Of a stretch of DNA of 64,000 nt, positions 1-41,209 are shown piece after piece (positions within the stretch are counted from its first letter, which is position 1; the number at the start of each line of letters is the position of its first letter). The notes under the pieces are model-generated. The model saw nothing but the letters and a program-made list of their open reading frames with translations. It was not told where the DNA came from and ran no database searches. The stretch is from assembly GCA_964187785.1 (NCBI GenBank), contig OZ076409.1:30692001-30756000 (forward strand), in the 5' to 3' direction. Both the position numbers and the translations under genes were made by a program. Source of the stretch: Amphiscolops sp. MND2022. Its lineage: Eukaryota.

Positions 1-2
1 AC

Positions 3-2468
3 TTAATATTAGCCGATTATGGTGATGATCAATTTACACTTCGTATTCAAGATAAAGGCAATGTTGTTAAATATACTCCTCTTGACTCCTTTTCATTTCA
101 ATCTGTTTCCTCATTCTTAAACAAATACAAAAAACCAGTCAAAAACAAAGTTAAAACTCTCCTTCAACAAAACCCTCTTTTAAACGAAACTGATTTATAT
201 GACACAGACGATCCTGTTCTTAAACGAATTCCTCAGCAATCTTCACAAACATCTCATGAACTTCACACTCTTTTTACAGAAGTACAACATCACAATTTCA
301 ACGATATTACCTTGTCACACGATATTTTAACCAACTTTATAAACTCCCCTCCTATTATTAACCATACTTTACACAGTAACGCTATAACACCAACTTCCCC
401 AAAAACCATCAATACTCAATCTTTGCCATTTTTTGACCCTTCCTTCTTTGCCCACCGTAAGGCATTTGATAATTTTTTCCTTCCTTCTGACACCTTATTA
501 ACATTACCCATTTTACTTCAAGCTCAAAAGGATGATCCTGTTCTTTCTACAGTATATACATGGTTAAAACAAAAACAGAAACCTCACTCCTTGACCCCAA
601 TTATTAAAGCAAATTCCTTTTTATATACATATTATAAACAATTCCAACACCTATATATAGACCCAACCTCTCACCTCATTCAATATTATACTCCCAATTC
701 TCGAATTTTTGAAGAAATTTTTATTAAAACCCAACCCTCTATTAACCAGACACGTATATGTTTACCATTTAAACTTTTCTACGCCGCATTCAGTAAAACA
801 CATTCTCATGGCCACTCCGGTGAAAAACTTTCTATTAAAACTTTTAACCAATTCTATTTTATTCCCCATCTACCTTTATGGTTTTCAATCTTTATCCATG
901 ACTGTATTGACTGCCAGACAAATAAGCATTTTCCAATTAAACCACAAAATATTTCTCCTCCCCTTCCTTTTTATGAAAACGCTACTCACTTCAATTACCG
1001 GATTTCTATGGACACCAAAGGTCCTATTTCCCCATCTTCTCAAAACAACTCCTATATTTTTGTTATTATTGATGCATTTAGTCACTTCGTTGTTACTAAC
1101 CCAGCTCCTAACATTAATTCAAAATACGCAATTCAAACTCTTCTCCATCACTGGATCACAAAATTTGGCCCCCCTCAATATCTTGTCACAGATCGAGGTA
1201 CCGAATATATCAATCAAGACATGGCTCATTTTTGTTCTCTCTTTCACATTAACCATTCACCTCGAACTCCCTATTCACCATGGACCAATGGTTTGGTCGA
1301 AGTCCAAAATAGAAATCTTGGAACTCACCTCCGAATATTTTTACAAAATCCTCCTACTAACTGGTCATTTCAAACCCAAATGTATGCATATGCTCATAAT
1401 ACAACACCTCTCTCTCAACTTAAACTTTCTCCATATCAAATCGTTTTTCACACCCATCCTCGCATACCTCTTACCTTTTCCCTTAATTTACCTCGAGAGG
1501 CTCAAAAACAATGTATTGCAACTTATTGTGAATCTCTTCCTCCTCATTCACATTATAGTACCCAAAACCTTAACCCATTTTTTCATTCCCTTCTTGACAA
1601 ACCCATCTCATCGTGGCTTTTAGCAGCTGAAACCGCAATGTTAGAAATATATTCAACTGTTCATCGTCATATAAATCACAAACTCAATTCTCAAAGTTCT
1701 ACATTTGAAACTACCCATTTGAAACAACTACCTCTTAATACCTTCGTTATACATACAAACTTTAAACCAGTTACGTTTTCAAACAAACTTAAACCTCTTC
1801 GAATTGGCCCATATAAAATCCTTAAACATCTTTCTGAAGTAACATATGAGCTTCTTTCACAAGATGGCTCTACATTTCAAACTCATCGAAATCATATTTT
1901 GCCATACTACCCTAAAGAACCCATAATTTTCCCATACATTAAACATTATCATTCCACCCCTTCTCTTATCAACAATCCTGATACTGATCCTTACCAAGAC
2001 ACCCTTTCTCAATTCTCTTCTTTAGATTTACAAAATAACTCTGACTCTTCTCAAACCCCTCCTCCTTCTGTATCCACAAATCTTAACAGCTCCCCCCCTT
2101 CCATTCCTAACTACCAAAACCTTTCACATTCCTCTTCTTTACAAGATCATTTCGACCATATTCCTTCCTCTACTACTATACCTTTACAATCTACTTCTTC
2201 TTCAGATAATCTCGATAATACAATAGACTCTCACGATTCAGATTTTGAAATGCTTCCAAATCCTCTTTATTATTCACACCCCTCACCTAACTCTTTCCCT
2301 CAGTTCTTTCCTCGTATTGCCGATTCTCCCAACACTTCTTCATCTACTTTACCTGAACCCCCCAACGAACCCATTTACCAACGAGCCCCCCATTCCCCAT
2401 ACAATTTACGTTCACTCCCTCCTCGCCATTATAATTCTTCTAAACCGACCATTAGCTTCCCTCCATGA
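3..2468 (+). CDS. pol: Pol polyprotein C-terminus: Gypsy-type integrase with Ser/Pro-rich tail (5'-partial)
   Basis: Frame is open from base 3 (LILADYGDDQFTLRIQDKGNVVKYTPLDSF...). HHCC zinc motif (HSHGHSG...CIDCQ), DDE core (ISMDTKGP / LVTDRGTEY / NGLVEVQNR) and GPY/F module (KLKPLRIGPYKILKHLSEVTYEL). Confidence 0.95.
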   Translation, partial: LILADYGDDQFTLRIQDKGNVVKYTPLDSFSFQSVSSFLNKYKKPVKNKVKTLLQQNPLLNETDLYDTDDPVLKRIPQQSSQTSHELHTLFTEVQHHNFNDITLSHDILTNFINSPPIINHTLHSNAITPTSPKTINTQSLPFFDPSFFAHRKAFDNFFLPSDTLLTLPILLQAQKDDPVLSTVYTWLKQKQKPHSLTPIIKANSFLYTYYKQFQHLYIDPTSHLIQYYTPNSRIFEEIFIKTQPSINQTRICLPFKLFYAAFSKTHSHGHSGEKLSIKTFNQFYFIPHLPLWFSIFIHDCIDCQTNKHFPIKPQNISPPLPFYENATHFNYRISMDTKGPISPSSQNNSYIFVIIDAFSHFVVTNPAPNINSKYAIQTLLHHWITKFGPPQYLVTDRGTEYINQDMAHFCSLFHINHSPRTPYSPWTNGLVEVQNRNLGTHLRIFLQNPPTNWSFQTQMYAYAHNTTPLSQLKLSPYQIVFHTHPRIPLTFSLNLPREAQKQCIATYCESLPPHSHYSTQNLNPFFHSLLDKPISSWLLAAETAMLEIYSTVHRHINHKLNSQSSTFETTHLKQLPLNTFVIHTNFKPVTFSNKLKPLRIGPYKILKHLSEVTYELLSQDGSTFQTHRNHILPYYPKEPIIFPYIKHYHSTPSLINNPDTDPYQDTLSQFSSLDLQNNSDSSQTPPPSVSTNLNSSPPSIPNYQNLSHSSSLQDHFDHIPSSTTIPLQSTSSSDNLDNTIDSHDSDFEMLPNPLYYSHPSPNSFPQFFPRIADSPNTSSSTLPEPPNEPIYQRAPHSPYNLRSLPPRHYNSSKPTISFPP

Positions 2469-2789
2469 TTAATATTCATTTTTTAATTGGATTTTCTCTC
2501 TCCCATTGTTCTCTGTCTAGACCTTTTCAAGCAGACATGTGACAATTTATTTAACCGCTTCCTTCAGTTCCATCTTCTCATTATGTCTCTAAGACACAAA
2601 CTGAACGGTTGCTTTCATCGAGACTGTTGTTCTCATCAAGACTTGTTGTCATATCGAAAACATTAACACTGAAACCATTAACATACCAAACTAAATTTTC
2701 AATACCTTTTCCTTCAACCCATTCTTCATTTTATTTAATTCTCACCCTAATATCTTCTAACCCCTTCCTTCTCCTTAATAATATACTAA

Positions 2790-4151
2790 CTCTTTCCTCT
2801 TGTTTCCATCCTGGATCTCACTGTTTTTTTATCTGACTCCTCCTCTAAAACTTCTTCTACCGTTTCAACTGATATTATACCTTCTTCACAAACTTCTGGA
2901 TCAACTCAGCAACCTCCTTTAAATCCTATCCCAATAACCCCTTCTCTAGATACCACCCCTGTTAATACTCCATCCCATACTCCTCTCCCTACCTCTGTTC
3001 CTCAACAAACTCAAACTTCTTTAACTCTTCCACTTTCTGATACAGAATTCCCTTTCGACATAACCCCTAATCAATCTCCACCTTCCTCTTCCTTTCATAT
3101 TCCTGACCCGAGTGACATTAACCCTACTCTTCTTCGAAATATTAATAACCCTACTCTTCCTCGATTAAAACTTATTCCTACTTCTATAAAAACTTTTCGC
3201 CGTCGCTCCCAATTAGATACCACTCTTTCTATCCCTCCACCTTGTTCTCACACCTCTACTAAGTCTTCTATACCTCCTTCTAAACCTCTTAAAATCCCCG
3301 TACTAGAATCTCTTGACTCACTTAAGAAAAAATCAGACTTAAGTGAAATTGACTCTACCACTTCTTCTCTTCTTTACCCACGTCTTCCCCCTTCTAATTC
3401 TGCTTCCAAATATACAACTTCTTCCTTGGATAATCTTCTTGACACCTCATCTGAGTCTACTATTAGCCATCCTCTCCGCCGTAGATACAATCTCCGTAAT
3501 AACCGTCGTCCTTCTCCTTCCCTTGCAAGCACAAACTCTTCTCTTTTACGTCACCACGCTCAATCCCTTTCTTCAGACTCCCTTTCAAACGCAGAAAACG
3601 CTCCTACTTCTGGCATTGACACTGCCTTTTCTCAACGTTCCTCTATTTCTTCTTATAATCATACTGGTCATCTTTTCTCTCGCCCAACTTCTCAAAATTC
3701 CACTCTTCTTTCATCTGACTCTCATTTACTTAACATTGATCTTACCTCTGATCAATATTCTACTCCTCCTACACCTAATCGTGTCGATTATCCTCTAATT
3801 GTAAATAATACACTTGTTAACAGTCCTCGCCAAGATCCTCGTTTTCTTTATCTTGCCACTCACAAACTTAATTCAAATCGTCATATTTCAGACACCCGTC
3901 GTCGTAAAGAATTTCTTCGTCTAGAAGAACCCAATCTCGAACTTAAATTTGAAATCAACGTCAAATTCCATAACTTAAGTCCCCATCCCATTCCGTCTCA
4001 TACAACAGTAAATTTTAAATCTCTTCCCCATCCATTTATTGCCACCAATCTTAGTCTTTTTGTTAGTGATAGCCCTCCATTTCGTCTTTTACACGGTTCC
4101 ATAACCTTCCTTAATACCCTCACCTTTTTAAAATACACTGCCCAATTTTAA
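2790..4151 (+). CDS. Accessory ORF2: 453-codon stop-free frame with no ATG; Ser/Pro/Thr-rich N-part and more globular C-terminal part
   Basis: Manual translation upstream of the track ORF 3426..4151 shows no stop back to TAA at 2787-2789 and no in-frame ATG. Confidence 0.6.
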   Translation, partial: LFPLVSILDLTVFLSDSSSKTSSTVSTDIIPSSQTSGSTQQPPLNPIPITPSLDTTPVNTPSHTPLPTSVPQQTQTSLTLPLSDTEFPFDITPNQSPPSSSFHIPDPSDINPTLLRNINNPTLPRLKLIPTSIKTFRRRSQLDTTLSIPPPCSHTSTKSSIPPSKPLKIPVLESLDSLKKKSDLSEIDSTTSSLLYPRLPPSNSASKYTTSSLDNLLDTSSESTISHPLRRRYNLRNNRRPSPSLASTNSSLLRHHAQSLSSDSLSNAENAPTSGIDTAFSQRSSISSYNHTGHLFSRPTSQNSTLLSSDSHLLNIDLTSDQYSTPPTPNRVDYPLIVNNTLVNSPRQDPRFLYLATHKLNSNRHISDTRRRKEFLRLEEPNLELKFEINVKFHNLSPHPIPSHTTVNFKSLPHPFIATNLSLFVSDSPPFRLLHGSITFLNTLTFLKYTAQF

Positions 4152-4239
4152 ACCTTAATACCCTCACCTTTTTAAAATACACTGCCCAATTTTAAACCTT
4201 AATACCCTCACCTTTTTAAACTACACTGCCCAATTTTAA
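4109..4239 (+). repeat. Three near-perfect tandem copies of a 44-bp unit spanning the ORF2 stop and ending just before the env ATG
   Basis: Unit CCTTAATACCCTCACCTTTTTAAAATACACTGCCCAATTTTAAA starts at 4109, 4153 and 4197. Confidence 0.97.
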
Positions 4240-4247
4240 TACAAAAC

Positions 4248-7019
4248 ATGTCTTTCCTTTTTTTTATCTCACTCTTCTATTTTCTTCCTTCTCTCTTCTT
4301 GGTATTTTCTCAAAATTTTCCATCTTCCGATCATATTGATCCTAATGATCCCCATATTTCAGATCTCTTAGTCTCTCACTATGATTGTTCTAAACAACAT
4401 AATTTAAGACAATTTAGTCTTACTCGCGTCCAACCATGCATTCAAGCCCCCTCTGCTTTTGAAACAACCCGTGCAATTGTCAATGTTTTTGTCCGTGCTA
4501 AGGCTAAGCGTCTTCGCGCTTGGACCTGTGAAGCATACGTCAAACGAGAAAAGTTTGTCTGTGCCCAATCTGATTACAAATATCGTCGCCATGACCGTAC
4601 AGATTATCATCAAAACACCATGGAACGTCCTCGTACTCTTGACCCAACCGAATGCAAACACGCTATTCGTCATTTAAACGGAACTCATAATCCTCAACTC
4701 GATGCTTTTAATTATTCAAATTCCTTTACCTTTTTCGATGATATTCAAAAACAACGCCTTTTAGAAACAAAACAACCTCCTTTTCGTATTAATAAACTCA
4801 ATACTTACCATTATGGTGCTTTTGCTTGGATCACCAATTCCCAATTAGTATTAAACTCAACTCTGAAAGAAAAAGCTGTTTGTTGGGACCGCTATGAGTA
4901 TATTATTGAAAAAGATAGTTGGTCTCTCATTGTAAAAGAAATTGAAATTACTTATGATGACAAAGAAAATAAATTGATATACCATGGTCATACTTTACCT
5001 TGCCTCCACGATGATGGTTTTTGTAAACCAACAATATTAACACCTTTCACCATTGTTTGGTTTCCTGAAGATCTCTGTTTAATTTTCTCTATTCATTCCT
5101 TTATTGGCCGCATGTCTAAACTCAATAACCGCTATTGGCTTGAAACTGAACATTTTTTTAACAATAATTCCTCTCCTGATTCAACTAATTCTCCTTACCA
5201 TGATACTAAATCTCAAACACGTCTTTCTCGTTTTGAAATTTTTCCTGAAAACAAAATGTTTTGTAATAAACCTACTCCTTTACATCTTACACAATATCCC
5301 GACTTGTTTGTAACCTACACCGAAGGTTTTAATATGCAAACTGGTAAACATAATCCACTCCAACTTCCACAAGATGAACAATACAACCAACTAACCACCA
5401 GGTTAATATCTGGAAAATTAATTCACACTAAAGATAAACTTCTTTTCCCTGCTCTCAATTCTTCAAATAATTTCGCTACCATTGATTATGAAGCCCATAT
5501 TAACACTAAACTTGACTACTCAATAAATCATGTTTTTAAAAGCATGTCCGTTGCTGAACTTAACACCCTCCACACCATCTGTGAAGTCGAACGTACTCAA
5601 CTTTTAACCATACTCGCTATGTCTGTTAAAAATCCACAACTTGCTGGTTTTCTCTTAACCCAAAACCGTAGCAATTTTTTATATGTTGAAGGCTCCACTG
5701 CCTGGTTATATGACTGTCCTCATCATCTTTCACCTCTCTATATTGCTGAACAATGTTATGACAAAATTCCTGTTAATTATCTTGACACTGTCATGTATGT
5801 TGATCCTATTACACGTCAAACTTTTGAATATGCAAACCAAATACCTTGTGAAAACAATCCTCAAAATGTTATTTCTCTTGACCCAGACACCGACCAATAT
5901 TACGTTCTCACTCCTCAACCTATTAAAAAAGACCCTCCTCTTCTTTTTGAACCAACTCAAATTCAAACCGCTATTAGCCCGAATACCTTTACTGCTCAAG
6001 ATGCTGGTATATATTCACAAAAAGAATTAAAACACTTTTGGGATCGCGTTTTATTTACTAAACATTCTGATAATACTCTCCAACTTCTTGGAAAAGCTAT
6101 CAGTTATGAATTTATGAATCAACAGTCTGACAATTCCTTTCCTAATAATCCTTATCGATCACTCCGCATTGGTCTTCATGACTACATGTTAAACCTAACT
6201 CCATTTTTCTCTCCTGATTGGTTTACAAATGCTTTTATCAAACTCTTTGGCTATCCATGTTATATTTTAACCCAATGTGGGATATATTTTTCTACTGCTC
6301 TCTTTCTACAATTCGCTTTCAATGCACTCTTTAGTATTTACCGCTCGTTCACTGTTCGAAATCTTCTTAAAAAACAAATTTCTGTAATTACTGCCTTAGG
6401 CTTTGGTTTCTTTGGTACTATTACCAAAACTATGATGACTGCTATGATCAAATCCACTCATTCATCATCAGATTCCGACGATTCTGATTCTCCTCATTCC
6501 CCTCTACAAAAAAATAATATTACATCTTCCACTTCTAAACCTCGTCCCCCTAAATATCATAAAAATATTAAAACAAAACTTCTTAGTTTAAAATATAAAA
6601 CTCCCATGAATAGAACCTCACCAAACTCTTCACCTATTAAACCCCCCTCTTCCTCGGTATTTCATGCTCCTTCCATTAATCCTACAAACCCTCCTAACAT
6701 CGAAAATTGTTCACCCCCACCTCCAAATTATAATTCTCATCTTTCATCCCATAATAACCTTTCTTCCCCCCACTCCCAATTACCTTCATTATCTTCACCT
6801 CCACATTTCCATAATTCGTCTCTTCCTGATGACACTAATTGTGACAATTCTTCCACTGATTCCCCCATTTATAATCCCTGGCAATCTACAAAATTATATC
6901 CTCCTACTCCACCACCAATTAAAACTAATGACATTCCGTTAACTTCTGTCAATAATATTTTTGACCCGCCTGACAGCCCTGTCAAAGTATATTCTTCTTG
7001 TCGCTTCCCTCCAGAATAA
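4248..7019 (+). CDS. env: Env-like membrane glycoprotein, probable class III viral fusogen (chuvirus-G / herpes gB-like)
   Basis: N-terminal signal peptide (MSFLFFISLFYFLPSLFLVFS); Cys-rich ectodomain with HYDC..FSL..VQPC, CEVERTQLL..NPQLAGFLL..EGSTAWLYDC, CYDKIPVNY..YVDPITR..QIPC and AGIYSQKEL motifs; N-glycosylation sequons; C-proximal hydrophobic segments; Pro/Ser-rich tail. Confidence 0.82.
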   Translation: MSFLFFISLFYFLPSLFLVFSQNFPSSDHIDPNDPHISDLLVSHYDCSKQHNLRQFSLTRVQPCIQAPSAFETTRAIVNVFVRAKAKRLRAWTCEAYVKREKFVCAQSDYKYRRHDRTDYHQNTMERPRTLDPTECKHAIRHLNGTHNPQLDAFNYSNSFTFFDDIQKQRLLETKQPPFRINKLNTYHYGAFAWITNSQLVLNSTLKEKAVCWDRYEYIIEKDSWSLIVKEIEITYDDKENKLIYHGHTLPCLHDDGFCKPTILTPFTIVWFPEDLCLIFSIHSFIGRMSKLNNRYWLETEHFFNNNSSPDSTNSPYHDTKSQTRLSRFEIFPENKMFCNKPTPLHLTQYPDLFVTYTEGFNMQTGKHNPLQLPQDEQYNQLTTRLISGKLIHTKDKLLFPALNSSNNFATIDYEAHINTKLDYSINHVFKSMSVAELNTLHTICEVERTQLLTILAMSVKNPQLAGFLLTQNRSNFLYVEGSTAWLYDCPHHLSPLYIAEQCYDKIPVNYLDTVMYVDPITRQTFEYANQIPCENNPQNVISLDPDTDQYYVLTPQPIKKDPPLLFEPTQIQTAISPNTFTAQDAGIYSQKELKHFWDRVLFTKHSDNTLQLLGKAISYEFMNQQSDNSFPNNPYRSLRIGLHDYMLNLTPFFSPDWFTNAFIKLFGYPCYILTQCGIYFSTALFLQFAFNALFSIYRSFTVRNLLKKQISVITALGFGFFGTITKTMMTAMIKSTHSSSDSDDSDSPHSPLQKNNITSSTSKPRPPKYHKNIKTKLLSLKYKTPMNRTSPNSSPIKPPSSSVFHAPSINPTNPPNIENCSPPPPNYNSHLSSHNNLSSPHSQLPSLSSPPHFHNSSLPDDTNCDNSSTDSPIYNPWQSTKLYPPTPPPIKTNDIPLTSVNNIFDPPDSPVKVYSSCRFPPE

Positions 7020-7397
7020 TAATATCTTTACTTTTGACTTTATTAATCCTCCTTCTGAATTTTAAACACCCAAACCCAATTTAATATCTTCACCTTTAAT
7101 TTTATTAATTCACATTCTGAATTTTAAACACCTTAATCCAATTCAATTTTCATACTAATATTATACCTCTTATACATAATAATTATAGTCCTTTTAAAAC
7201 TTTCACCTTTCCATTTCTCATAATTCTTGCTTTCAATCTGGTCATCTCTTCTCATCTCTCCAACATATTTCTCAAATTTTCTGTAACACCTAATCTTCAT
7301 CTAACAATCATATAATCTTTCCTACAAAAACGCACATTTGTATAACTTTCTCTAAACGCACATCTGTATAAACTATTCTAAACTTTTTTCTACAAAA

Positions 7398-8885
7398 ATG
7401 GCCACTATCAATCCCGAAGAAGAACTCCTTTCCAGCATTGCATCTTTGTCACCCCCTCTTTCTCTTAAATCTGGTACTCTTGATCTTCCTCTCACCAATG
7501 ATCCTCTTCCTCCTAATTCTACCAATACTCCAGAACCTACTATAAATACTAACCCCACCACTTCTCAATCCACTAAATCTTCTTCCAATGTTCTTAAATC
7601 TCGTCATTCCCCCACTCCGCCCCCAAATAATATCCATATTACTATTGACAATCATCACATCCCTACAAAAAAGAAATATAATATTCTTGAAGACCCTGTC
7701 TTCATTGATTCCGGTATTTTGCCCCCAACTCTTCATCCTTTAAAAAATCCTTCTCAATCTAATACAATGACAGACGAATTCCTCCGTAACCACCCAAATT
7801 TTAAAGCCAACCTTCCTTCCTTGTATATGACACCCACTACCTATAAATTTCGCTTTCCTCAAGACCGTAGTTTTGACCATTATGTTGCTTATGCTTCCAA
7901 AAATTTACCTCAACTCGCCTATTGGCAAACCAATCGTGTCCGCTTCTTTCAATTCCAATTCAACCTTCTTAAACCCACTCAACATGATTTAAACACCAAT
8001 CCCAATGATATCACCACAACTCCTTCTGTTAAAAAACTTCATCATCAAACCTATCAACTTTTTCTTGAACATAAACATCCTCAAAATTTTATTTTCCAAA
8101 ACCATAAATTTACTTCTCCATTTTCATTTCATTCTCATTATTCACTCAATCACCTCTTCACTATTGGAACAATTCGTAACTATGACCCTGTGAAACAATA
8201 CTTTGTCCTTTCTTCTTATCATGATCCCACCAGACCATTATTTGTACCTCAAGAAGCACTCAATGTAAACGATGATTTCCTCCTTCCTACACATATTCCA
8301 AACGCTGTTCAAAACTTTTTCCCCAAAATGACAAAACTCGTAGAAACACCTCTTGACGATCATTCTCGTTCACTTTATACTGCCCTAGTTCATAAACACT
8401 ATTCTCTTGCACAACTCAATTTTGTTATTGCGAAACTTTCTTCCTTCATTCTTAAAAAACAATACAAATATTTTTCATTAAACATCTCAGATGAAATCCT
8501 TCAAACTCTTCCTAAACACACTTCCCCTAATACTACATCTGAACCGCCTCACATTTCAACAATTCCTCCTCAATCTAATTCATACGTTCTTCAAACTGCT
8601 AATCCAAATGTTTGCATCAACTCTTTCTCTTGTCCCACCGACAAATTTGTCTCAGAAATACTTTCTCTTCTTCGCCCACATGTTGAAATTGCCCCAAACA
8701 CAGATCCTTTCATTATTTTAAATCACATTTTTGACACCTATCGTACTCTTCAATCTCTCCTTCAACTACACTCCACTGATATTCAAAATTTAACGATTTC
8801 TACAATCCATGTTAATGATTTTCTTAAAAAACTTGTTCTATTGGAAACTCCTCCTCAATTCACTTCCTCTTCAACCTCTCTCTAA
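7398..8885 (+). CDS. Accessory ORF4, 495 aa, unknown function
   Basis: Intact ORF with AAAATGG start context and the element's composition. Degenerate homologous copies occur on the minus strand at ~15880-16330 and ~18600-19950 (e.g. QDRSFDH vs QDRNYDH; HKHYSLAQLNF vs KHHSITQLHF). Confidence 0.8.
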   Translation: MATINPEEELLSSIASLSPPLSLKSGTLDLPLTNDPLPPNSTNTPEPTINTNPTTSQSTKSSSNVLKSRHSPTPPPNNIHITIDNHHIPTKKKYNILEDPVFIDSGILPPTLHPLKNPSQSNTMTDEFLRNHPNFKANLPSLYMTPTTYKFRFPQDRSFDHYVAYASKNLPQLAYWQTNRVRFFQFQFNLLKPTQHDLNTNPNDITTTPSVKKLHHQTYQLFLEHKHPQNFIFQNHKFTSPFSFHSHYSLNHLFTIGTIRNYDPVKQYFVLSSYHDPTRPLFVPQEALNVNDDFLLPTHIPNAVQNFFPKMTKLVETPLDDHSRSLYTALVHKHYSLAQLNFVIAKLSSFILKKQYKYFSLNISDEILQTLPKHTSPNTTSEPPHISTIPPQSNSYVLQTANPNVCINSFSCPTDKFVSEILSLLRPHVEIAPNTDPFIILNHIFDTYRTLQSLLQLHSTDIQNLTISTIHVNDFLKKLVLLETPPQFTSSSTSL

Positions 8886-9534
8886 TTGGTAAACACTTTC
8901 TTTCTTTTAATTCCTTTTAACAATACATTTTTTCTCAGAACAATGAATATCGATAACAAATTTCCATGGATCACATATTATCTTCTATGACCTCTTATTC
9001 GATTAACATACATATTACATCTTTCACTCTTTATTAGCATATATCATCTTTCCCCTCATTTTTGACACTCCTCTCTATTGTCTTTTCTATTTCTTAATCA
9101 ATTGCTTTGACACTTCCACTTGTTCTTCTGATAAATGTTGACATTACATCTCATGTCTTCTAATATTATTAACTCTTAAAGATCTTTTTCAAATTGCTCT
9201 CTCACTTGCTTTTCAAACTTTTTGCAGACCACTCCTATTTTAAATATCACACTCAAAACTCTTTAACTGACTATTTCCATTTTCATCTTTGCCAAATTTA
9301 TACTATCAGGTATAAAATATTTCAATTAACTTTCTCACTTTTCAAACATACTCTAACTTTTAACCACAAATTCTACAAATATTTTGCATCTTTCTTTTTG
9401 CATTTCACACTCTATCATATCTTTCTCTTTTCGATCCAATAAATTCACCACAACACTTTCTCTCTATTAAATTACTTCACATAATATAAAAAATATCATC
9501 ATAATTCAACATTTTCATTTATTTTGTTTTAGTA

Positions 9535-10431
9535 ATGACATCTTCTTCTTCTGTGCCAACGGCATACCCTCTTCTAAATCAACTCCTTGATTCTGCATTG
9601 CCATTTCCTGTCTCCTCCACATCTTCTACATTCATTCTTCCAACAGTCGCCACTACTTCTTCATCATCTACATCTTCCACTGCTGTTTCTGTCATACCCT
9701 CTGTTGCATCTGTAACATCTGCTCTTTCATCTTCACCCATCTCTTCTTCCGCCAATACTTCTGGTGTAAATACTACAGCCTCCACTACATCTGTCCCACC
9801 TCCAATTCCAGTGCTTTCTTCTACTTCGTCTCCAACTCCATCAATCAAACTTCCTTTCTTCATTCATCCTCAAGATGCTGTCGCCACTTCCCCACATTTT
9901 CAACAACATTCGGCCGTCCGCCAATTGACTCGTGATCTCCAGCAGAAGAAGCCAAAACATCCAAAACGTCTCCACTTGCCATCAGAAATAATTCAACAAC
10001 CTGTCCGCCGTCTGGTCCACAGTGTGGTCTATAAACAGAAATTGAACAAGTATATAACTGCTCTCCAAGTATATGAAAAACATCTTGATGAACTTATTGC
10101 ACAAACTACATTCGAATTAGATAAACTTAATAATACACCCCCTCTTTCCAAATTACGAAAATTTAAAACAACTCAACCTATGCAATTATCCCCTCTTTCT
10201 ATTCAAATACCTCCAAATAATTGCTGTAATTACTATAATTGTTTCCCTTCTAATCCCCTCCATTGTTCCCATGTTCCCCTCGCATATACTATGCATTCCC
10301 ATTTTCCTCCCCCCCCACCTTCCCCAGCATTAATTCCAATTCGTGTTGAACCAATAACCCCCACTTTTCAACCTCCCTCCCCTTTGAATGATTTAGACCC
10401 GCTAGTAACGTCACTGAACGATGTTGATTAA
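9535..10431 (+). CDS. Accessory ORF5, 298 aa, unknown: Ser/Thr-rich N-terminus, central coiled-coil-like helix, Cys/His cluster, Pro-rich C-terminus
   Basis: Intact ORF; KQKLNKYITALQVYEKHLDELIAQTTFELDKL helix; NNCCNYYNCFPSNPLHCSH cluster; preceded by a pyrimidine tract and AG at 9531-9532. Confidence 0.7.
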   Translation: MTSSSSVPTAYPLLNQLLDSALPFPVSSTSSTFILPTVATTSSSSTSSTAVSVIPSVASVTSALSSSPISSSANTSGVNTTASTTSVPPPIPVLSSTSSPTPSIKLPFFIHPQDAVATSPHFQQHSAVRQLTRDLQQKKPKHPKRLHLPSEIIQQPVRRLVHSVVYKQKLNKYITALQVYEKHLDELIAQTTFELDKLNNTPPLSKLRKFKTTQPMQLSPLSIQIPPNNCCNYYNCFPSNPLHCSHVPLAYTMHSHFPPPPPSPALIPIRVEPITPTFQPPSPLNDLDPLVTSLNDVD

Positions 10432-11754
10432 TATTGTTTGTTCAAACATTTTTGGAAATTTATATCACATTTTTGATCATATTTACTTTGTTTGGTTTTG
10501 AACATTTCTTTTAACCCCCCCCCACATTTTCTTGACCCTCCTCACGCCTATTATTGTGCTATGCTTTTCATTTTTCCTCAACTTTTAAAAATTTCCACCC
10601 TCAAATTCCCACTTTTTATTTCAAACATTTGCTTATAACTTCGGTTCTAAAAACTCAATTCCCCAAAATTCTATCTTAGCATGTTGTTTTGATCTCCCCT
10701 CCTCTCCAATACTGGAGCTATCCCTTATTTTCACTTTTCTTCACTATGAAACAAACTTTTTAATCATAATTTACAACCATTTTTCTCTTCCTTCCCGACA
10801 AATTTTGAATTCACTCCTCTTTTATTTCAATTCTACCCAATTTCTTCTTTTCATCCTACTCCTACTAGATCATATATTAAAACCAACTTACCTCAATATC
10901 TCACTTTTCTTCGCTTTCTTTTAGACACAAAAATTCGCGTGATCAAACCATTTCTTTCTTTTTTTTTAATTGACAACATACCTGCCACGTGATATAATTT
11001 TGATCAACTCTTGACTCATATGGCTTTGTTTTCGCTCAAATTTGCTTCTGCCACCGCCTTTTGCTTTGAAGATTCTAACGTCTCATTTTAGTTGATTAAA
11101 AAGGCCATAAGATCAACGCTTAGTTATCAAACAACTAAGAATCTTCGGCTTCTTGATAGAATTTTCTTGTCAATTAGGCTGTCAAAATCTTGCCATATCT
11201 CAATTTTTTCTCTCACCCTCCTTGTCAATCAAACTTTTACCGCCTCGGAAGATACTAAAATCCTGAAAATACTAACTCATTCGTCCTGTACAAAAATTTC
11301 ATGAAACCTGAAATCATTTTACTGAATTCGTACCCAATATAAAAAAGTCGCATTTCAAATAATGAATTGAAAATAACTAAAAGTTAAAACTTTATTCTCT
11401 GTTCTTCCATGTATTTAGAACCTCGGAACTAAGGTTAATAACCTACTCTCTTGAAGACACGTTTCTTTATACTAAAAAACTTAAAATTCCCCGCCCGTAA
11501 CTCACGAAAGGAAAGATATGAAGACAACTCAAACATGAAAAATTTTCACAAATATATGAAGACAACGTTTAAAACAAAAACTCTTAATGCAAGATTATTA
11601 AAATTCCTCCTTTTTCTCTTTCTCTAAACATATTAAACCAAACTTCAACCTTTTAATAAAACTCCAAATTTCAAGATATCTTTTAACAAAAACTCCAAAA
11701 TTTTTCTTCCTTTCCTTTTTTTTCAAAACCCGGTCGGATGATATACCAGATATA

Positions 11755-12061
11755 TGTTGTGTAGTGCTGTATCGTCCCCCCAACTCCCCTTATGTCTAGA
11801 CTTCTAGACTTCATAATAAATGTACTCCGTCTCATCAATGTATCTGATTAATATTCTAGATGTAAACTTAATGTACCCACTTAATATTCTGTACAATGCA
11901 CTTTGATTTAGACACAACTAAAATTCATTCTTCACCAACCAGTTGTCTTCCCTTAAGACCTAATATCTGCAGCTCTGTTAGTGTCTCTTAAAGTACTAAG
12001 ATCATTTGGACACTCTATCTCAGTAACACCGATCTATAAGAACAAAACAAGTACTTTAACA
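11755..12061 (+). repeat. Candidate 3' LTR
   Basis: TGTT...AACA inverted termini, AATAAA at 11815-11820, and a composition switch into an unrelated ORF right after 12061. No canonical polypurine tract, and the 5' LTR is not in the window. Confidence 0.5.
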
Positions 12062-14332
12062 TGCTAACAGAAATGTGCAGTGCTCGCAATATCGAATTCT
12101 ACCTATGCGCACCTAACTTACGCGTCAGAAAAGACGACTTACGTCCTGCTGCAGTCACAGTACACGCATACTTGGCAGTAATATCACGCCTATTGCAACC
12201 AGTGGAACGTGGTGGCAATGCCCAACTAACGTGGGACGATGCAATATACTTTGACCATGGAATGCGTCTAGGCACGCTAACCTTCGATGAAACAGGAAAA
12301 GAAAGCGAATTGGCTCAGAAGCAACCATTGCAGAACGCGAGAATATGCGCAGATACAACTGGCTGGTCCGCGAAGCACATCCCAACACCATCAAGGCAGA
12401 CCTTGCATCAGTCTGGGATCAACTAAATCGATGGCCACTTAACCGTGAGGTCGAAAGGACCATTCCCCAAATTCAATTTGCCGACAACACGGAAATTATC
12501 AAAATGCCACTGGGCATCAGGCACATTGTAGCCCATGAAGCCGTGACCCTTAGCAATTTGGTCCAAGCCAAAAAGGCCACTTACGTGGATTGGTATAACG
12601 ATCGCCTAGCCACAGTCACTCTAGAAATGACCGCACGACCCTATCTGTCTCTTTCCATGCCTTGCTGACAAGTTTTGGATTGGGTTGGCATATGGACGTC
12701 ATTGCAGACGAGTTCAACCTGACCGATGGACAGCTGCAAAGACTCACTGAAACACTTAAAGAAACTTCGGAAAACGAGGTGTTAGCCCTTGCGCTAGCCC
12801 TTGAGCCTACCAAGTTTGTAGCTGGACCACTAGCCATCGTTGTAGACTTGGTCACATCCGGTGGAGTGCTAGAATTCTACACCTACCTAGTCTTGGCTCA
12901 AGGAAAACTAACCAGCTTGCTTGGGTGTGGAGAACTTCTCTTCACACAAAACGGGCACAACTACACCGAGCATTTGTTCCGAATGAGAGCTTCCGTGCAA
13001 CACTGGCTCTAGTCCACACTGATCTATGCATCAGGATTATTTGTAGGAGTGGACCAAGCTCAACCCCTACACGATCCGGACGCGCAGTTGCCTCCTGAAA
13101 ACCCGGGATTTCCGATGTCGCAACAATTGGCTGACCTGACGCTAGCCGAAGTAGAACTCTTAGCTCCCGTTTTAATTCCAATCTTTGGAGCTCTTGGACT
13201 ACTACGCTATCCAACCAAGCCAGCAGTATCCCTAGCAGTGCATGTTGCAACGGTATCCATCTTCACGTACCTTCAAGGAAGCCCGCCTATGAGCTATGCA
13301 CAAATGATACGAGAAACCTACAGTGGCGAAGTACCTCGAGCGTATACCACTGCCAAGACTGAGCAACAAGTGGAGGAAAATATGATGGGTGTTATCCGTG
13401 CCCGCTCGCGCAAAGCCGCCGTCTTACCAAGGGAATACGGTCCCATCAACTGGTACAATGCTCCTGTTGACTTGAATGGACAACCATTCCGGTTTCCTTG
13501 GTCGTCAGACTTTATCAAGAAAGTGATAAATCCCTGCTTGCAGCTCAGCCCGCATGACCGTTTGGACTACAAGTTCAAATTCATCCAGGTACCCAATCGC
13601 TACTGGAAAGAGCCAGTAGGCTACCCTCGCGCACGCCCAATTGGACGCGGGAAGGTATTGCTGGATCACCAATTACGGCACTTAGACGTGGCCAATGTAC
13701 CCAAATGGGATCACGTGGCGGCACTAGTGCGTGATCGCAACCTGTCACGTAGAATATCCCCCTTACAATACGAGCCTGTCTGGCGCCCACAAGGACGCAT
13801 GACCATGTCCGGAGATATGCCGTTGTCGTTATTGGACATAGTGAACCAGGTGTTAGGCGCAGAAATGCGCGCCGAATGGGACGAGGAATGCCTCAATCTG
13901 GAAGTCAGCAAATTCGACGTATGGAAACAAGCTTGCGCACTCTGGAAGCAAGCTGGCTGGGTATCAAAACGTGTAGCCCTGGCAGCCAACCACCGTGCTG
14001 AACAAGAACGTGTTGCTCGATATGCGCCACAACAGTCACAGCCTCCTACTATGGCGATGTCATTGGAGCAACCATTGACGGTAGAAGCTTATACCAATGA
14101 AGCGGAAGTTACAGCAGATAACACAGCTATGCCTGTAACTCCTAGTCCTTCTGGAGAACATGCAGCAGAGCTGACCCCAAATGTAGAGCTGGCAGAACCC
14201 ATCGGTGATCTCACTATTGATACCGATGTCGAAACTGTTGTGCCTTCGCCAGTCCGACGAGCGTCAGTAAGCGATGCGTCACCTCCAAGAGAAATCTCTC
14301 CTCGAAGCAGGAACAAATCTGCTATTCAATGA
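12062..14332 (+). pseudogene. Decayed large unknown ORF (about 750 codons), 5'-truncated by the LTR element; probably an accessory gene of another mobile element
   Basis: Track ORFs 12061-12426, 12345-12668, 12662-13012 and 13049-14332 chain via two frameshifts and one in-frame TAG (13010-13012). Confidence 0.65.
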
Positions 14333-15879
14333 ACCGTCGACGTTTTAACGAACCTGATGCTTTATCAATCAATCAAGGGAAGCTAGGCCTTCTGTGATGA
14401 AAACTCCAAAAAAACTTTTAGTTAACTGCTGTTAGTTAGACATTTTGATTTAGATTTACGCCTCGGGTGTATGGCCATAGAGTGCGCCTGCCCCTTGTGC
14501 TAGCATTACGTTAACAAAGCTCTTGAAAAAAGACATGATCAAGCAAACAATGTTTTCTTTCAACAAACGCCTTTGGCGTTGTCAAAAAAAAGGAGAAAAC
14601 CAGGTGCGAGGGCATAGTCGCCAAAAAAAATTTTAATCAATACCCTTTAGCTGAGTCTTGTACACTCTACCGACTGTCTGTTTGTAAACGGAGCTTATAC
14701 GCTCCTGAGAAAAGATGTTTTAAACGAAAACTGCAAAAAATAGATCTCTACAAAAACTGAAACGAAGACATTTTAGCAGGCACTTGCCGCAAAAGACATT
14801 TTAGTCCTCAACAGTGCTAAAAATGGCCTAAGCCACCTTAGAAGCTCAAGCTCTCGAGCTGGTGCTACGAACGTCTTGATTTTTTTGTAAAAATATTAGG
14901 TCTAAAAAAATATTAGTAAAATTGCAATAAGATCCGAAAAGGCAATGTCTCAAAAGTAGCTGTTCTATACAACGGCACATCAACTTCAAGATGTATCCAC
15001 AGCATGGGCAATGTCCTGTCTTCAGACGAAAACCCCCGATGCTTGCCAGGGACGACAAGCCAGGAGCCCAGGGAGTGGATGTAACGGCACCCTGTGACCA
15101 ACGAAATTTTCGAAGTTTGACGATTTTCTGCAAATTTTGTTCAAAAGTGACGTGGCCCTCAAACATGTGTTCACGAAAAACCAGTCCCGCAAAAATAAAG
15201 AGAGCGTGGATCAACAAGGCCCGCGAAGCGGAAAAAAAGTGACACAACGACAAGAGAAGTGCGTACAACGTCGCGAAATCGAAAAATCGTAAGCCTATGC
15301 GCTAATTCCCACGGTATCCATCGAGAATCAGACGGAATCAGCATGTCCGAGTGATTGCAGCGCCCGGACCCAGGGTTGTGTCGATCCCAAGAACCAGTGC
15401 CATGCCACCCAGAGTGATTTTAGACTTGCCAAACTGGTTTTTCTTGCCCCTTTGATGTGTTAATCAATTGTTTGATGAATTCTTTAATTCGAGAGCTACC
15501 TCTGTTAATGTTAATGTCATTTATGATGGATTTCCATCTGGACCATTTCTTTCAGTTCTATGCAGCTTAACCCAATTTCTACAGGCTATTTACACAGTGG
15601 ATACGAGGAAAAAAGCGTATTTCATGTGACTAGTAGCAGTTACAGACCGGAACCGGTCAGAAAGCATCCTTAGAGACGGTTCTCCCTTCTCGGGACCGGC
15701 ACTCCCTAGGAGGACGAAATGAACTGGAATCATGGCGATCAGTCCCGGATCATTACCTATGGCTTCAGTTCCTCCGCCCTGCGTAGCAGATAAACGCTAA
15801 GCGCTTTTTGTTACATGAGATCTTATTGAGTAGGTTCGAGAAAGTTAACTTGAAAGAAGCGTAAACTTTTAACTTGCCA

Positions 15880-18800
15880 GAAGGAGAAATCAGAGTCGCT
15901 CAGATGTGCAGGAGCAACTTAGTGATCATAATTGCGGTCCTGTTGGAATTGAAATATTTCAGAAGTTGTGGAAGTCATGTTAAAAAAAGAGAACTTTAGC
16001 TTTATATTGCGGGTGAGTTTTAGGATACTCAAAGGACATTGTGTTAGATTGAGAAGGCGTTTCTTAATGAGTGTAAGGTTGGAGGTAAGGTACCAAAAGA
16101 TAGGATTGTTCAACATATCGTATTCTTTGAGGTAATATATTATTACGTTATTGAGAGTGACGTGAGTGTTAGTAGGAGGAGGTGTAGTTGATTGAGGAGT
16201 TCAAAATTTTTTGAGTTTTTTGTAGAAAAAAGGATTAGAGTTAGTACTAGAAACTGTAGATAGAAGGGGAGTATGGTATGACGAGCATTGTATAGTGTTA
16301 TCGGAAGTGTTAGCCATTACAGTGTTTCAGACGTATGAGGAGGTGCATTGAAGTGAGGAGTGGTTTAGTCTTGAGCCTGGTCAGAAAATTCGAAAATACC
16401 AGGTTCAGGAGAAAATTCGGGGAACAAGAATCGATGCTTGAAAGCAATTATTTTTCAAAGTTAGAGGAAGTCAATTTCACAAGAGTAATTTTTTTGTATT
16501 CTTAAAAAGTAGCGGTTGTAGCAGGAAAACAAGTGACTGAAGAAGGCAGGAGAAAAGTGATTTTAGACGAGAAGAGTAGACAAGACGAATAGACAAGGCG
16601 AGTAGTGTTTAGAGACTTTCAGGAGGTTATTCGATTTTGGCCTTATCTGATATCAAGAAATTATCATTCGGTTTAATTTGCGAGATGACGAGGATGAAAT
16701 TTAGTTTATTGCCATGAATTGTGTTCAGGCGAATCATTAGGCGAAATGTGAAACGTTGTGCCCTTTTGAGTGAGCGAGTGAACGAGTAGGATGATGGTGA
16801 CGCTATGTTGGAGAATCTTTTTTGAGGAAGAGAGGTTGATGTTAAAGATAGAGACGATCTTTGCATGGGGGTTTTGCTTTTGAATTTCGGTAACTTTTTA
16901 TCAAAGTTACTTGCATGTTTAGCTTTAGAGTTCTCTTGTGTAGGCTCACTTCGTTGAGAAGAATCTGAATAAAAATCAAAATCAGAGTCTACTGTTTGGA
17001 TCATTGTTGTGGTTTTGGTTCTGAAAAACATGAGGGAAATGTTGTGTCTTGAGGAATGCGTTTGGAATTGAAAGGCCTGTATCACTGGGGAATGTGTTCA
17101 AACAAATTTGAAAAAAGGGTGCTATGGAAAACTACATCCCACAAAATGTTAAAATATAACATTGGTAACCAAAAGTTTTGATGAAAGCATCAGCAAACCA
17201 TTCAGATGTAAAAAGAAGGACTGAAATTCAACATAAACTCATGAAAACCCATCCGAAGTGATTTGTGAGGATTATCAGAGAGATTTCCGAGGAGTTGTAA
17301 AGTGTTATCACAATTTTTAGTGGAAAGAATACGAATCCAAAAAAGCCTGAGTACCTTTTGAGAAGAGTTTCCTGCTTTTTGATGAGAAAGGTGTGAAGGT
17401 GTTTGGGCTAAAAGCTGTTTCGATTTTTTCAGTTCAAAAAAATTTGGAGGTTTTTTAAAATAGGTTCAGGAGTTAAAACACAAAAGTGGTCGATGTCTGG
17501 GTCAAGAGCGTAACGGAGCATTTTGAAAAATGTTTTCTCACAAAATTTCGTTAGCGTATTCAAATTTTTGTCGAGTAATATGATGAACAAACGTAACTAT
17601 ATCAAAGTAATATTCAGGCCTTCTTCAGCTATGTATAATGGAGAGATGTGATGAAGGTCATCATAAAACCAGGACGTAGAGCCTTCTACATAAAAAAGTT
17701 ACCACAAATATGAGTGAGGAGAAAACTAGCTAAGTGTGGATTTTTAACAAACAAGGCGAATAATGAGAAGAAATGGGTTCTTTCGACAGCGCAGACTCTT
17801 TGTGAGGTATTGAGTTCTGCGATAGTCATAGTTTTAGTCTAATGAAGTGTATGTAACAGTGTTACCTTGACCTTGAATCCCAAGTGTAAATTGGTTATCT
17901 TAATCAACAAGAATCGGATGTTAAAAATTTTTGAGTAATTAATACTTCTTTTGTAGTAGTTAATACTACTTCTTTTGTTTTACTAAATGTTAATTTGTTT
18001 TTTGGAATTGTCTGATTGTAGTTGGGTGAGTTCATATTGTGGTGGTAACATTTTAAGTTATGGTTGGCAAATTTTGTTTGTAATAGTAGAGAAGTCTCGA
18101 CTGAGCATGTCAGCAACAGCTGAATCGGTACCAACGGTATGTGTAATCCGAAAGTTGGCGAATTTGGTTCATAGCGTTTGACCTATACATTGTCCAGGAG
18201 TGTTTTTGCCTTATCGAGCGAGGAGAAAATTGGATTTTGGTCAAGGAGAAGCGTATTTGAAAGTTTTGAACCAATTATGATATATGCATTTATGGTGAGG
18301 GCATGTAATAGCGGAAAGATCTAGGTCATATGATGAAAGATTTTGTTCCTGAGTGTTTATGATTCGGTTGTTATAAGTACTTGTTTTTGTTAGTGTTAGC
18401 TTGAACAAAACGTGCACTAAAACCAAATAAGGATGCGTCTATTGTGATGTAGAAAGTGTGGGAAGTATTAGGGTAGCAAGGACAGCATCTTTTGAAAAAG
18501 AATATTCAGTTGCGTCGAAGTGTTTGTCTAGTTCAAAAGGAGTCTCGTCAGGGAGGATAATATGAACACGTTTGAGTGAGATGTGAAGTTTGTTAACAAA
18601 CCTTGAGTAGAACATCATAAGAAGATAAAGAAGATTTAACAAGCAAGAGGATTTTCTAGAAAAGTAAGCTTCTTCAGAAAGTCAGAAATATGGAGAGTAA
18701 AGAATGTGAGAGTTTAAATATCATTACTGTGGATTTGTAGTAGATCTTAATGTGTACGATAAGTTTTGAATTTGTGAGTGGGATTTCATAACAGGTCAGT

Positions 18801-19950
18801 GATAGGGGCAGTTTCAACTTAAGGACGGACGAAAGAGCTTTGGAATATCTGTAACGAATTTCTCTGTGGAGCCAGAGAAGACCTTATTGCAACCGTTTGG
18901 ATTGACAGTTTGGAGTACAACGCGGAACGAGTAGATGGGATGAGAAGGCTTGAGTTTGGAATCACAACTCAAGAGTGTTAAAATGGAATGACTTGAGGAG
19001 GATGCAGTTGAGGTGCATTATGAGTTTCTTCAGGATTGTTTGTGGTTACAAGAAACCTTCCTATTGTTTTTTGAAAACCTAAAGGAGCGTTTGACAATAA
19101 TGAAATGCAATTGGGTGATCGAGTGATGTTTAATTTCAAGAGGTAGTATCAAAGCAGTGGGCATGATCATCAAGAGGAGAAACAGCAAGTTTTTACAAAT
19201 TGGAGTAAAATTTTTCAACTTTGGAAGCGATATAAATTGGTAGGAAATCAACTTTCAGATTACGCGTTTCATGGGTAACAGAAAGAGGACAAGTTGGGTC
19301 AAGATCGGGACTTAGGATGTAATTTTGTTTAACAGGTTAATAGTTGCGCATTATGCCGATTGTATTTAGGTGAATAAAAAATAATAAGGTTAGTATGCGA
19401 AAGGTAAAGAAGTGAATTTGTGCTTCGGAAAAAAACATTTTGAGGGTATTTTTCTCAAGGAAGAAGATATGTGTTTAATGGAGTCTTTTTTCAATAGACG
19501 AAGAAGTAGGTAATCCATTCAGCTTGGTATTGAGGACATATTGATTAGGTTTGCGAAAGGTAAATTGAAATTTGGAAGAAGCGCAATTTTCCAATTTGCC
19601 AGAACGAAAGTTCAAAAAGTCGCTCAGATATGCAAGAGCAACTTAGTGACAGTAATTGCGGTCTTGTGGGAATCGAAATTTATTAGAATTGGAGTCAAGT
19701 GTGGAAAAAGATTGTCTTTTTATTGAGGGTGCGTTTCATGATGTTCAAAGGGCACTGTATTACATTTTGAAGATTTTTTCACTGGGTGTAAGGTTAGAGG
19801 TAAGATACCAGAAGATAGGAGCGTTCATTATACCATATTTTATATGAGGTATTAAATCGTTATCAATAGTGATGTGAAGGTTGGTTAGTGGAGGTCAAGA
19901 ACGTGGATTTCTTGGTCGAAGAAAGAAGTTTGGAGTTAGTACTAGAAATT
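15880..19950 (-). mobile_element. Degenerate, rearranged relative of the env-bearing element (ORF4 - pol piece - env C-half - ORF4 N-part)
   Basis: G-rich plus strand. The reverse complement gives degenerate matches to env (NPHKSLRMGFHEFMLN, WFADAFIK), to pol (NQFTLGIQGQGNTVTYTSLD) and to ORF4 twice. Confidence 0.85.
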
Positions 19951-37630: not shown

Positions 37631-38135
37631 GGGCACGGTAATAAGTTCGAACGCATAAGTTCGAATTTTAATTTTGAATGGACTAAGTTCGAATTTTCCA
37701 AAAACCGGAATAAGTTCGAATCACTGTGTTCGAATTTTGAACTAAGTATAAAACGTGCCTCCGATATTTCCCCATTTCATCTAGTGCCCCGCGGCCCCCT
37801 GGGGCCGCTTATGTTCGTTCCGATCTTGCTAAGCGATGTCGAACAGGAGCAAAGACATAGAGGGAACGGACATCGCGAAGCGATCGTAGTGGGAGCTGGT
37901 CTTTGCGACGGTGAGGGCGAGCGTGCATACACCGGATATGCCTCACATTTCAGTTTTTAGATTGCTTCAGATCCTAGGTGGTGGAGCTCTCAGGATCTTG
38001 TGTGAAGGATGTCCAGTTTACACCGGATATGCCCGATATGAAAATTCGAACTTGGTGTCTCGAAACTAATCCATTCGAACTTATTGCACTAGTTTAAATC
38101 CGAACTTAGTAAATCGAACTTTTTGCCTGAAGCCC
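37631..38135. mobile_element. Foldback/MULE-type MITE with AAGTTCGAA sub-repeat TIRs
   Basis: GGG...CCC ends, inverted arrays of AAGTTCGAA/TTCGAACTT, flanks TATTATTG / TATAATTG. Confidence 0.7.
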
Positions 38136-38254
38136 TATAATTGAACTGACGGAAGCTTGAATAATATTTCTCCATTTTAAAAATTCGTTCTATTTTCTAT
38201 CGGCGAACGCAATCATGTCAACGGAAGAATTTTGATAAAGGGGTAATTGACAAC

Positions 38255-39008
38255 GGGAGACAGGAATAAGATCGAAAGAATAAGATCGAATGGAATAAGA
38301 TCGAATGAAATTGACATGCTCAAAATTTTCACTTGAATAAGATCGAATCCTGACTTGAATAAGATCGAATTTTCACTTGAATAAGATCGAATCCTGACTT
38401 GAATAAGATCGAATGTTGGATTGAATAAGATCGAATTTTGACTATTTTTTTTAAGGATATCGATATGAATTTTCAAAAAATTGAAGGTTTGAGAAAGGGC
38501 TCAGTAAATTATGTCTATGAAGGCTATCTCTTTATCAAAAACAAAGCGGATAAAGAAACTACATATCTACGCTGTTATCAAAACAAACGCTTTATCAAAA
38601 CAAACAAAAAGGTAAATTCAATCCATATGGACTTTCTGAAAGCGAAAATATCAATGTGGGGCATATGCGATGTATGCACGCTCGCCCTCACCGTCGCAAA
38701 GACCAGCTCCCACTACGATCGCTTCGCGATCTCCGTTCCCGCTAGGTCTTTGCTCCTGTTCGACCTCGCTTAGCAAGATGGGAACATAAGCGGCCCCAAG
38801 GGGCCGCGGGGCACTAGACGAAATGGGGACATATCCGAGGCACGATATATGTAATATATTTTTTTTCCGTAATTTTTCGATCTTATTCCATTCGATCTTA
38901 TTCCATTCGATCTTAGGCGATTAACGATTTCATTCGATCTTATTCCGTTCGATCTTATTCCATTTTCGTATTTTCGATCTTATTCTTTCGATCTTATTCC
39001 GTTCTCCT
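38255..39008. mobile_element. Mutator (MULE)-derived MITE with AATAAGATCGAA sub-repeat TIRs and a FLYWCH-like remnant
   Basis: Perfect 9-bp TSD ATTGACAAC (38246-38254 / 39009-39017); internal MNFQKIEGLRKGSVNYVYEGYLFIKNKADKETTYLRC resembles the start of a FLYWCH domain. Confidence 0.9.
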
Positions 39009-41176: not shown

Positions 41177-41209
41177 ATAAAATTTGTTTCTCTCAAAGGG
41201 TTCGTTTCT

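Follow-up and report, generated by a model that had tools for sequence, protein, structure and literature searches.

A large Ty3/gypsy element of a likely acoel carries a predicted class III (gB-type) envelope glycoprotein and additional conserved genes

The env gene is part of a complete Ty3/gypsy provirus

We analysed an env gene on the plus strand of a 64,000-nucleotide stretch of DNA, which is called the window below and to which coordinates without a contig name refer. The gene sits in a complete Ty3/gypsy provirus of 18.9 kb (G000:C1:30685148-30704058), whose 5' part lies upstream of the window. The following features were annotated:

C1:30685148-30685467, upstream of the window: 5' LTR
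3..2468, plus strand: 3' part of Gag-Pol with RNase H-integrase linker, integrase and C-terminal tail
2811..4151, plus strand: ORF2, 446 codons, counted from an in-frame CTG that is conserved and likely serves as a non-AUG start
4109..4240, plus strand: tandem repeat with a 44-bp unit in three copies, spanning the ORF2 stop and the env leader
4248..7019, plus strand: env, predicted class III (gB / Monjiviricetes-G-like) type I membrane glycoprotein, 923 aa
7398..8885, plus strand: ORF4, 495 aa, conserved in all three families
9535..10431, plus strand: ORF5, 298 aa, Ser/Pro-rich
11739..12058, plus strand: 3' LTR, 320 bp, TG...TA, same sequence as the 5' LTR
12059..12062, plus strand: target site duplication (TSD), 4 bp, ACAT, also found immediately left of the 5' LTR

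Gag-Pol is encoded by a single ORF of 2637 aa, whose ATG is located 5.4 kb upstream of the window (G000:C1:30686555). Its Pfam families follow each other in the order Retrotrans_gag, RVT_1, RT_RNaseH, Integrase_H2C2, rve and SH3_Tf2-1, and the integrase encoded upstream of env is of gypsy type (rve, E 2.3e-15). The protease has no Pfam match of its own and was assigned by a DSG motif in the sequence together with a Pfam match of the homologue at L052, a distant locus described below. In the PDB, the reverse transcriptase-RNase H region (RT-RH) matched Ty3 Gag-Pol best (E 2.9e-36), with foamy-type and other retroviral RTs ranking behind it, and no Pao-specific Pfam family was detected in Pol at E values up to 0.1. 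Membership in BEL/Pao (Belpaoviridae, Anakin-type) is contradicted by the gypsy-type Pfam families and the Ty3 best match. A virus of the Chuviridae/Jingchuvirales or an endogenous copy of one was also rejected, since env is flanked not by an L polymerase and an N gene but by genes of the retroelement and by ORFs that no Pfam family matches.

The primer binding site (PBS) can base-pair across 11 nt with the 3' terminus, CCA included, of host tRNA-Met(CAT), which is encoded at four loci (ARAGORN confirmed 3/3 tested), and this match is kept in 7/7 full copies. A canonical polypurine tract is missing upstream of the 3' LTR; its expected place is taken by a conserved non-purine motif (11719-11738). 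The integrase ORF and env are not adjacent, being separated by a 1.8-kb interval with ORF2, and the ORF order LTR, gag-pol, ORF2, env, ORF4, short ORF, LTR is common to three families of the element. The 44-bp tandem array is variable between copies, two of four other copies aligning with a break of one unit. Carriage of env by a gypsy element, as proposed in the original prediction, is supported by the rve integrase, the Ty3-like RT-RH, the LTRs, the TSD and the tRNA-Met PBS. With intact gag, pol and gB-type env in multiple copies, the element is an HSV/gB-type errantivirus in the operational sense of Chary & Hayashi (eLife 2026, PMC13524379).

The region 1-12058 displays an extreme strand bias, with G accounting for 8-10% of coding-strand bases in every family and a GC skew of about -0.5. 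Long plus-strand alternative frames inside pol (e.g. 661-1623) were set aside as by-products of this G-poor composition.

Env is a predicted class III membrane glycoprotein

The env ORF starts with an ATG at 4248 and ends with a stop at 7017-7019. Its product consists of a signal peptide (aa 2-20), an ectodomain (aa ~35-665), a transmembrane (TM) segment (aa ~679-697) and a Pro/Ser-rich tail of ~200 aa. Hydropathy analysis revealed two segments above threshold, aa 2-20 and aa 679-697, which correspond to the signal peptide and the TM segment; a further hydrophobic stretch at aa ~712-724 stayed below threshold. The signal peptide had been predicted correctly; the predicted 'TM segments' amount to one clear and one possible segment, because the second stretch is below threshold. 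Env has 15 N-glycan sequons, and a scan of its 923 aa detected no furin site (R-x-K/R-R).

All five motifs of the predicted Cys pattern were recovered in Env, namely YDC..SL..V..C at aa 45, CE.ER..LL at aa 445, CY.KIPV at aa 503, DP.TR..C at aa 519 and GIYS..EL at aa 587. An alignment with 22 relatives, most of them only 22-30% identical to the window Env, showed that 14 ectodomain Cys residues are each kept in 19-22 of the 22 sequences. Pfam assigned a single family, Monjiviricetes_fusion (PF24664, E 1.7e-27), and sequence and profile searches of Env against the PDB revealed nothing credible.

The ectodomain (aa 35-665) was modelled with AlphaFold (AF2) from an alignment of 127 sequences, obtained from a set of 138 rows by removing 11 fragments that were mostly poorly aligned; an earlier model from 23 close relatives (pLDDT 35.6) was set aside. 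In the model, which has a mean pLDDT of 77 and a pTM of 0.63, long strands pair with one another, a helix of 45 residues occupies the centre and a further helix lies at the C-terminus. When this monomer model was compared with the PDB by Foldseek, all matches listed were herpesvirus gB, with HSV gB as the best (E 3e-11). Alignment with VIA-align gave Z 11.5 for the whole gB ectodomain (rmsd 13.0, 410 residues) and Z 9.2 for gB domain IV (rmsd 3.5, 156 residues). The best match among the predicted viral structures of BFVD reached E 1.4e-26, and the top matches were G proteins of xinmovirus, chu-like and tick viruses (E 1e-26 to 1e-24, 12-14% identity). Viral G proteins match Env by fold alone, their sequence identity being 9-14%. 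Atlas features of the family-3 Env indicated class III fusogens exclusively (scores 0.93-0.96), at a recognition value of 1494 that lies below the 2300 mark and makes the Atlas score weak alone.

Global TM-scores of the model are low (~0.3 against gB, 0.3-0.47 against the best viral G) and the whole-chain rmsd amounts to 13-17 A; the domain orientation in the monomer model is therefore unreliable. No hydrophobic fusion loops are identifiable in the predicted model, in which the candidate fusion-loop hairpin tip (aa ~105-121) is polar or basic and partly of low confidence (pLDDT < 50). Taken as a prediction, membership in class III has good support from the Pfam family and the AlphaFold/Foldseek match to gB, in agreement with the gB/chuvirus-G-like protein originally proposed. 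The predicted fold is indeed Monjiviricetes-G-like, but the label 'chuvirus' is too specific, because the top structural match, from a xinmovirus, ranks level with chu-like G.

Copy number, sister families and selection

A 250-aa env query detected 7,962 candidates in the genome, of which 150 were scored; all 150 are 92-100% identical and 136 are free of stops within the matched 250 aa. The env copy count is at least 150, with haplotype duplicates possibly among the copies on small contigs. The same genome harbours two sister families, with 50/50 scored matches for each (at least 50 each). Their Env sequences are 53-55% identical to the window Env, and their elements are 17.7-18.1 kb long. Four other copies are colinear with the window element at ~99%. 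A 4-bp TSD was found in five of seven full copies and none in the remaining two. Among the four copies of families 2 and 3 that were read, one has a gag-pol split by a stop and another a shortened gag-pol.

Ratios of dN/dS were calculated after Nei-Gojobori for two pairs of lineages and are 0.038 and 0.057 for the env ectodomain, 0.022 for RT-RH, and 0.19 and 0.38 for the env tail. The element is young and abundant, and its env is under purifying selection.

Host lineage and surrounding sequence

In the single COX1 of the assembly, TGA encodes Trp, AGR encodes Ser and AAA encodes Lys. The best named matches of this COX1 are two acoels (75% and 73%), other named animals reaching 65% or less. 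Since its nearest named relatives are acoels, the host is likely an acoel.

Two decayed, rearranged relatives of the window element lie on the minus strand at 15817-19821 and 29034-31831; they comprise pol and env fragments of 29-63% identity and, in 15817-19821, also an ORF4 fragment. On the minus strand of 60185-64000 we found a long ORF with a stop near 61250, which includes an endonuclease VII-like stretch (PHROG, E 4e-4) and B-family DNA polymerase-like motifs and presumably encodes a Polinton/Maverick-type polymerase. Tandem arrays occupy 57270-60000 (83-bp unit, ~30 copies), 55402-55680 (31 bp) and 38324-38443 (22 bp), and short dispersed direct and inverted repeats of ~90% identity, MITE-like in appearance, are clustered at 37744-42876. 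The GC-richer flank at 12040-14332, with several ORFs including one of 439 aa without a Pfam match, is possibly an older repeat that was the insertion target of the element.

ORF2 and late-domain-like motifs

ORF2 has a Pro/Ser-rich N-terminus with an LYPxL motif and a conserved C-terminal domain of ~130 aa; searches of Pfam, PHROG and PDB gave no match for it. Its dN/dS values are 0.10 and 0.18. Met is absent from ORF2 in 4/4 lineages, and one of five further family-1 copies has a single one. In all lineages the same place near the 5' end is occupied by a CTG flanked by A at -3 and by G at +4, and CTG accounts for only 0.6-2.7% of Leu codons. Because of the conserved CTG in this context, the rare use of CTG and the missing Met in all four lineages, ORF2 likely starts at CUG. 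A splice acceptor directly before ORF2 (TACTAAC) was considered and rejected: no AG follows, and the motif is absent there in the other lineages.

The LYPxL motif occurs in ORF2 of all four lineages (1.6-2% of shuffles each) and PSAP in two of them. PPxY-type motifs are the only late-domain-like motifs in the tail of the window Env. Of 16 distant Env tails, ten contain YPx[LIV], five contain P[ST]AP and none contains PPxY; 0/2,000 shuffles reach either of the former counts, for patterns that were chosen after inspecting the sequences and in related sequences that are not independent. The enrichment of YPx[LIV] or P[ST]AP in C-terminal tails includes P0175, P0176, P0179 and P0191. The LYPxL, YPxL and P[ST]AP motifs are of the ESCRT late-domain type; YPxL fits a YxxPhi endocytosis signal too.

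Further accessory ORFs

ORF4 is conserved with dN/dS values of 0.08 and 0.15. It gave no match in Pfam, PHROGs or a PDB profile search, and its family-3 homologue none in Atlas. Homology of ORF4 to the ORFs that follow env in distant elements found no support (hhalign probability 0.9%). These post-env ORFs (L052:9651-12092, L056:2318-4060 and L059:13404-15254) have in common a conserved domain and, behind it, a region resembling a coiled coil, matched no known family, and are present as two paralogues in L052.

ORF5, with a dN/dS of 0.34 between subfamilies, revealed no family or structure match; families 2 and 3 have a different, shorter ORF in its place. A pyrimidine-rich AG is positioned 2 nt before the ORF5 ATG in both family-1 subfamilies, and among the downstream ORFs ORF5 alone is preceded by a candidate acceptor at a conserved position. 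SL trans-splicing has been reported for an acoel, according to the available part of that literature, and could by analogy serve the downstream ORFs. Comparison of 1-12100 with two contig sets of low depth revealed no junctions, a result that has no bearing on expression or splicing.

Two or three small hydrophobic uORFs (48, 37 and 78 aa) precede gag just upstream of the window (L013:3934-4555), and counterparts occur in the sister families. The 37-aa uORF is clearly under purifying selection, its codon changes being synonymous in 19 cases and non-synonymous in 3; the corresponding numbers for the 78-aa uORF are 15 and 34.

Probable co-inheritance of env and pol

A 50%-representative search with Env detected 2,159 relatives at E values up to 0.001; for the best of the distant, full-length sequences the identity is 22-30%. 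Scanning of metagenomes revealed nine loci with distant env relatives. Two of them, L052 and L059, have more than 7 kb of upstream sequence, and both carry a gypsy pol and extra ORFs around env; the other seven have ~2 kb or less upstream, which is too short to show pol. Identity of RT-RH to the window element is 50% for L052 and 46% for L059. From the sister families through L052 to L059, identities fall in parallel within the same elements, from 73% to 50% and 46% for RT-RH and from ~54% to 29% and 23% for Env. No env relative was detected on viral contigs in the scans.

Because the distant env genes also stand beside related gypsy pol genes and the viral contigs scanned gave no relative, long co-inheritance of env with pol is likely and fits better than a fresh capture; this comparison rests on two outgroup loci and leaves the capture undated. 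The independent capture of env suggested by the original prediction finds no support: 2/2 long distant loci have gypsy pol, and the available text of PMC13524379 already describes gB-type env on gypsy elements. In a quick env tree, a phylogeny having been proposed as a check, the acoel families form a clade of their own on one long branch that lacks a resolved sister group.

The alternative that an acoel gypsy lineage acquired a chuvirus-like (Jingchuvirales) G independently and fairly recently would agree with this long-branch clade, with Monjiviricetes_fusion as the sole Pfam family and with an Env fold that is nearer to Monjiviricetes G (E 1e-26) than to herpesvirus gB (E 1e-11). Insertions of Jingchuvirales G near gypsy fragments have been described in insects (PMC10084718, available part), but the same text reports no clear capture by gypsy. 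The best viral G proteins are 12-14% identical to Env, compared with 23-30% for Env proteins encoded beside gypsy pol elsewhere, and a recent event is also at odds with the absence of relatives from viral contigs and with three families that already have a common layout at 53-55% Env identity. As an ancient origin is moreover argued for in the available text of PMC13524379, we regard recent capture as quite improbable. A still fainter prospect, and one largely refuted by copy number, shared LTR-bounded layout and selection, is that env is a passenger or a host-domesticated gene no longer used by the element: it lies inside LTR-bounded copies of three families, at 150 sites or more, and its dN/dS is near that of RT.

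Proposed function of Env

Our preferred reading, which we hold to be probable, is that Env is the predicted class III fusogen of an intact multi-copy gypsy element of a likely acoel host, likely used for cell entry and likely inherited with pol over a long time. Full-length RNA would be translated into Gag-Pol, host tRNA-Met would prime reverse transcription and the integrase would generate the 4-bp duplications. Env would be made from a subgenomic RNA, enter the ER by its signal peptide, trimerise and be taken into particles, whose budding may be aided by the LYPxL-bearing ORF2 protein. Env would then fuse these particles with cells nearby, for instance stem or germ cells.

Selection on env shows its use, not its route, and Env might alternatively be a real, selected fusogen that acts without free particles, by direct cell-to-cell transfer or by fusion of host cells that spreads capsids. 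The small membrane uORFs before gag, which are 37-79 aa long, recall the sORF2 cell-to-cell route of Drosophila MDG1 elements, for which FAST-like features are described (PMC11952523, available part); late-domain-like motifs in ORF2 and in the Env tails of relatives fit budding instead. We consider a particle-free route unlikely, though it is the strongest competitor to entry by enveloped particles. Extending the particle-based reading, these elements might be complex enveloped gypsy viruses of acoels with Gag-Pol, a class III Env, a CUG-initiated, matrix-like ORF2 protein for ESCRT-dependent budding, and accessory and small membrane proteins; they would then represent an undescribed giant, multi-gene, gB-type clade that was missed by size-filtered surveys and reached the organisation of complex retroviruses independently. 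This proposal is tentative and on balance rather doubtful.

Comparison with known systems

Chary & Hayashi document gypsy elements with a gB-type env from many animals (PMC13524379, available text), and 221 of the 1,512 rows in their supplementary table 1 are ENV_HSV; according to the same text, 114 gypsy elements were found with the chuvirus-like glycoprotein of a mosquito BEL/Pao element as bait, a pre-Cambrian origin of gB-type errantiviruses is argued for, and their route of cell entry is stated to be unknown. The pairing of gypsy with a gB-type env is published, and the claim originally flagged is therefore not a discovery by itself. New here are the likely host phylum, which is unnamed in the survey, the element size and the extra genes under purifying selection. 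Neither Xenacoelomorpha nor an acoel genus name occurs in seven supplementary files of PMC13524379, its table lacks the PBS motif of the window element, and its main text, as available, has no mention of late domains or ESCRT. Outside subscription journals and Repbase, we found no paper on an envelope glycoprotein of an endogenous acoel retrotransposon. The prefilter of the survey, as described in the available text, admits at most 10 kb and a pol-env gap of up to 1 kb; the window element would fail it because of its 1.8-kb gap and ~12.5 kb from gag start to env end, and later manual extensions in that survey might have passed it.

With this element, a likely acoel joins the hosts of a survey in which a pre-Cambrian origin is argued for and, in the parts available, no Xenacoelomorpha are named. 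LTR elements dominate acoel genomes, as stated in the available parts of PMC9911081 and PMC6451197, and very young, abundant copies are documented here in animals with such LTR-dominated genomes. Particle assembly and budding become approachable through the conserved accessory genes, the CUG start that is likely for ORF2, and the motifs resembling late domains.

The HSV/gB-type 'ancient errantiviruses' (PMC13524379, available text) resemble the window element in a gypsy pol followed by an intact gB-like env, LTRs, a tRNA PBS, several near-identical copies, and a signal peptide and TM segment with no requirement for a furin site. The window element differs in having ORF2 between pol and env, two ORFs after env and small uORFs before gag. 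The window element and its sister families measure 17.7-18.9 kb, whereas 16 rows with LTR coordinates, among 30 of the 221 ENV_HSV rows, span 9.3-13.0 kb; the element is unusually large and has extra conserved genes.

Anakin, a mosquito BEL/Pao element with a chuvirus-derived G (Dezordi 2020, PMC7642597, available part), is likewise an LTR element with a Monjiviricetes-type class III glycoprotein, but the window pol is gypsy-type and its Env is far from extant chuvirus G. With Monjiviricetes G (PF24664; Xinmoviridae, Chuviridae and their relatives) and with gB of herpesviruses, Env has in common the predicted class III fold, the cysteine pattern and type I topology; in contrast to them it is only 8-14% identical, has no RdRp or nucleoprotein nearby and carries a cytoplasmic tail of ~200 aa. 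Very large size combined with env and accessory ORFs is also known from the giant planarian gypsy element Burro (> 30 kb) and from foamy-like fish ERVs (up to 17 kb; PMC6431247, available part). The env of Burro is F-type-like and in frame between gag and pol, whereas the window element encodes a predicted class III Env in a separate ORF.
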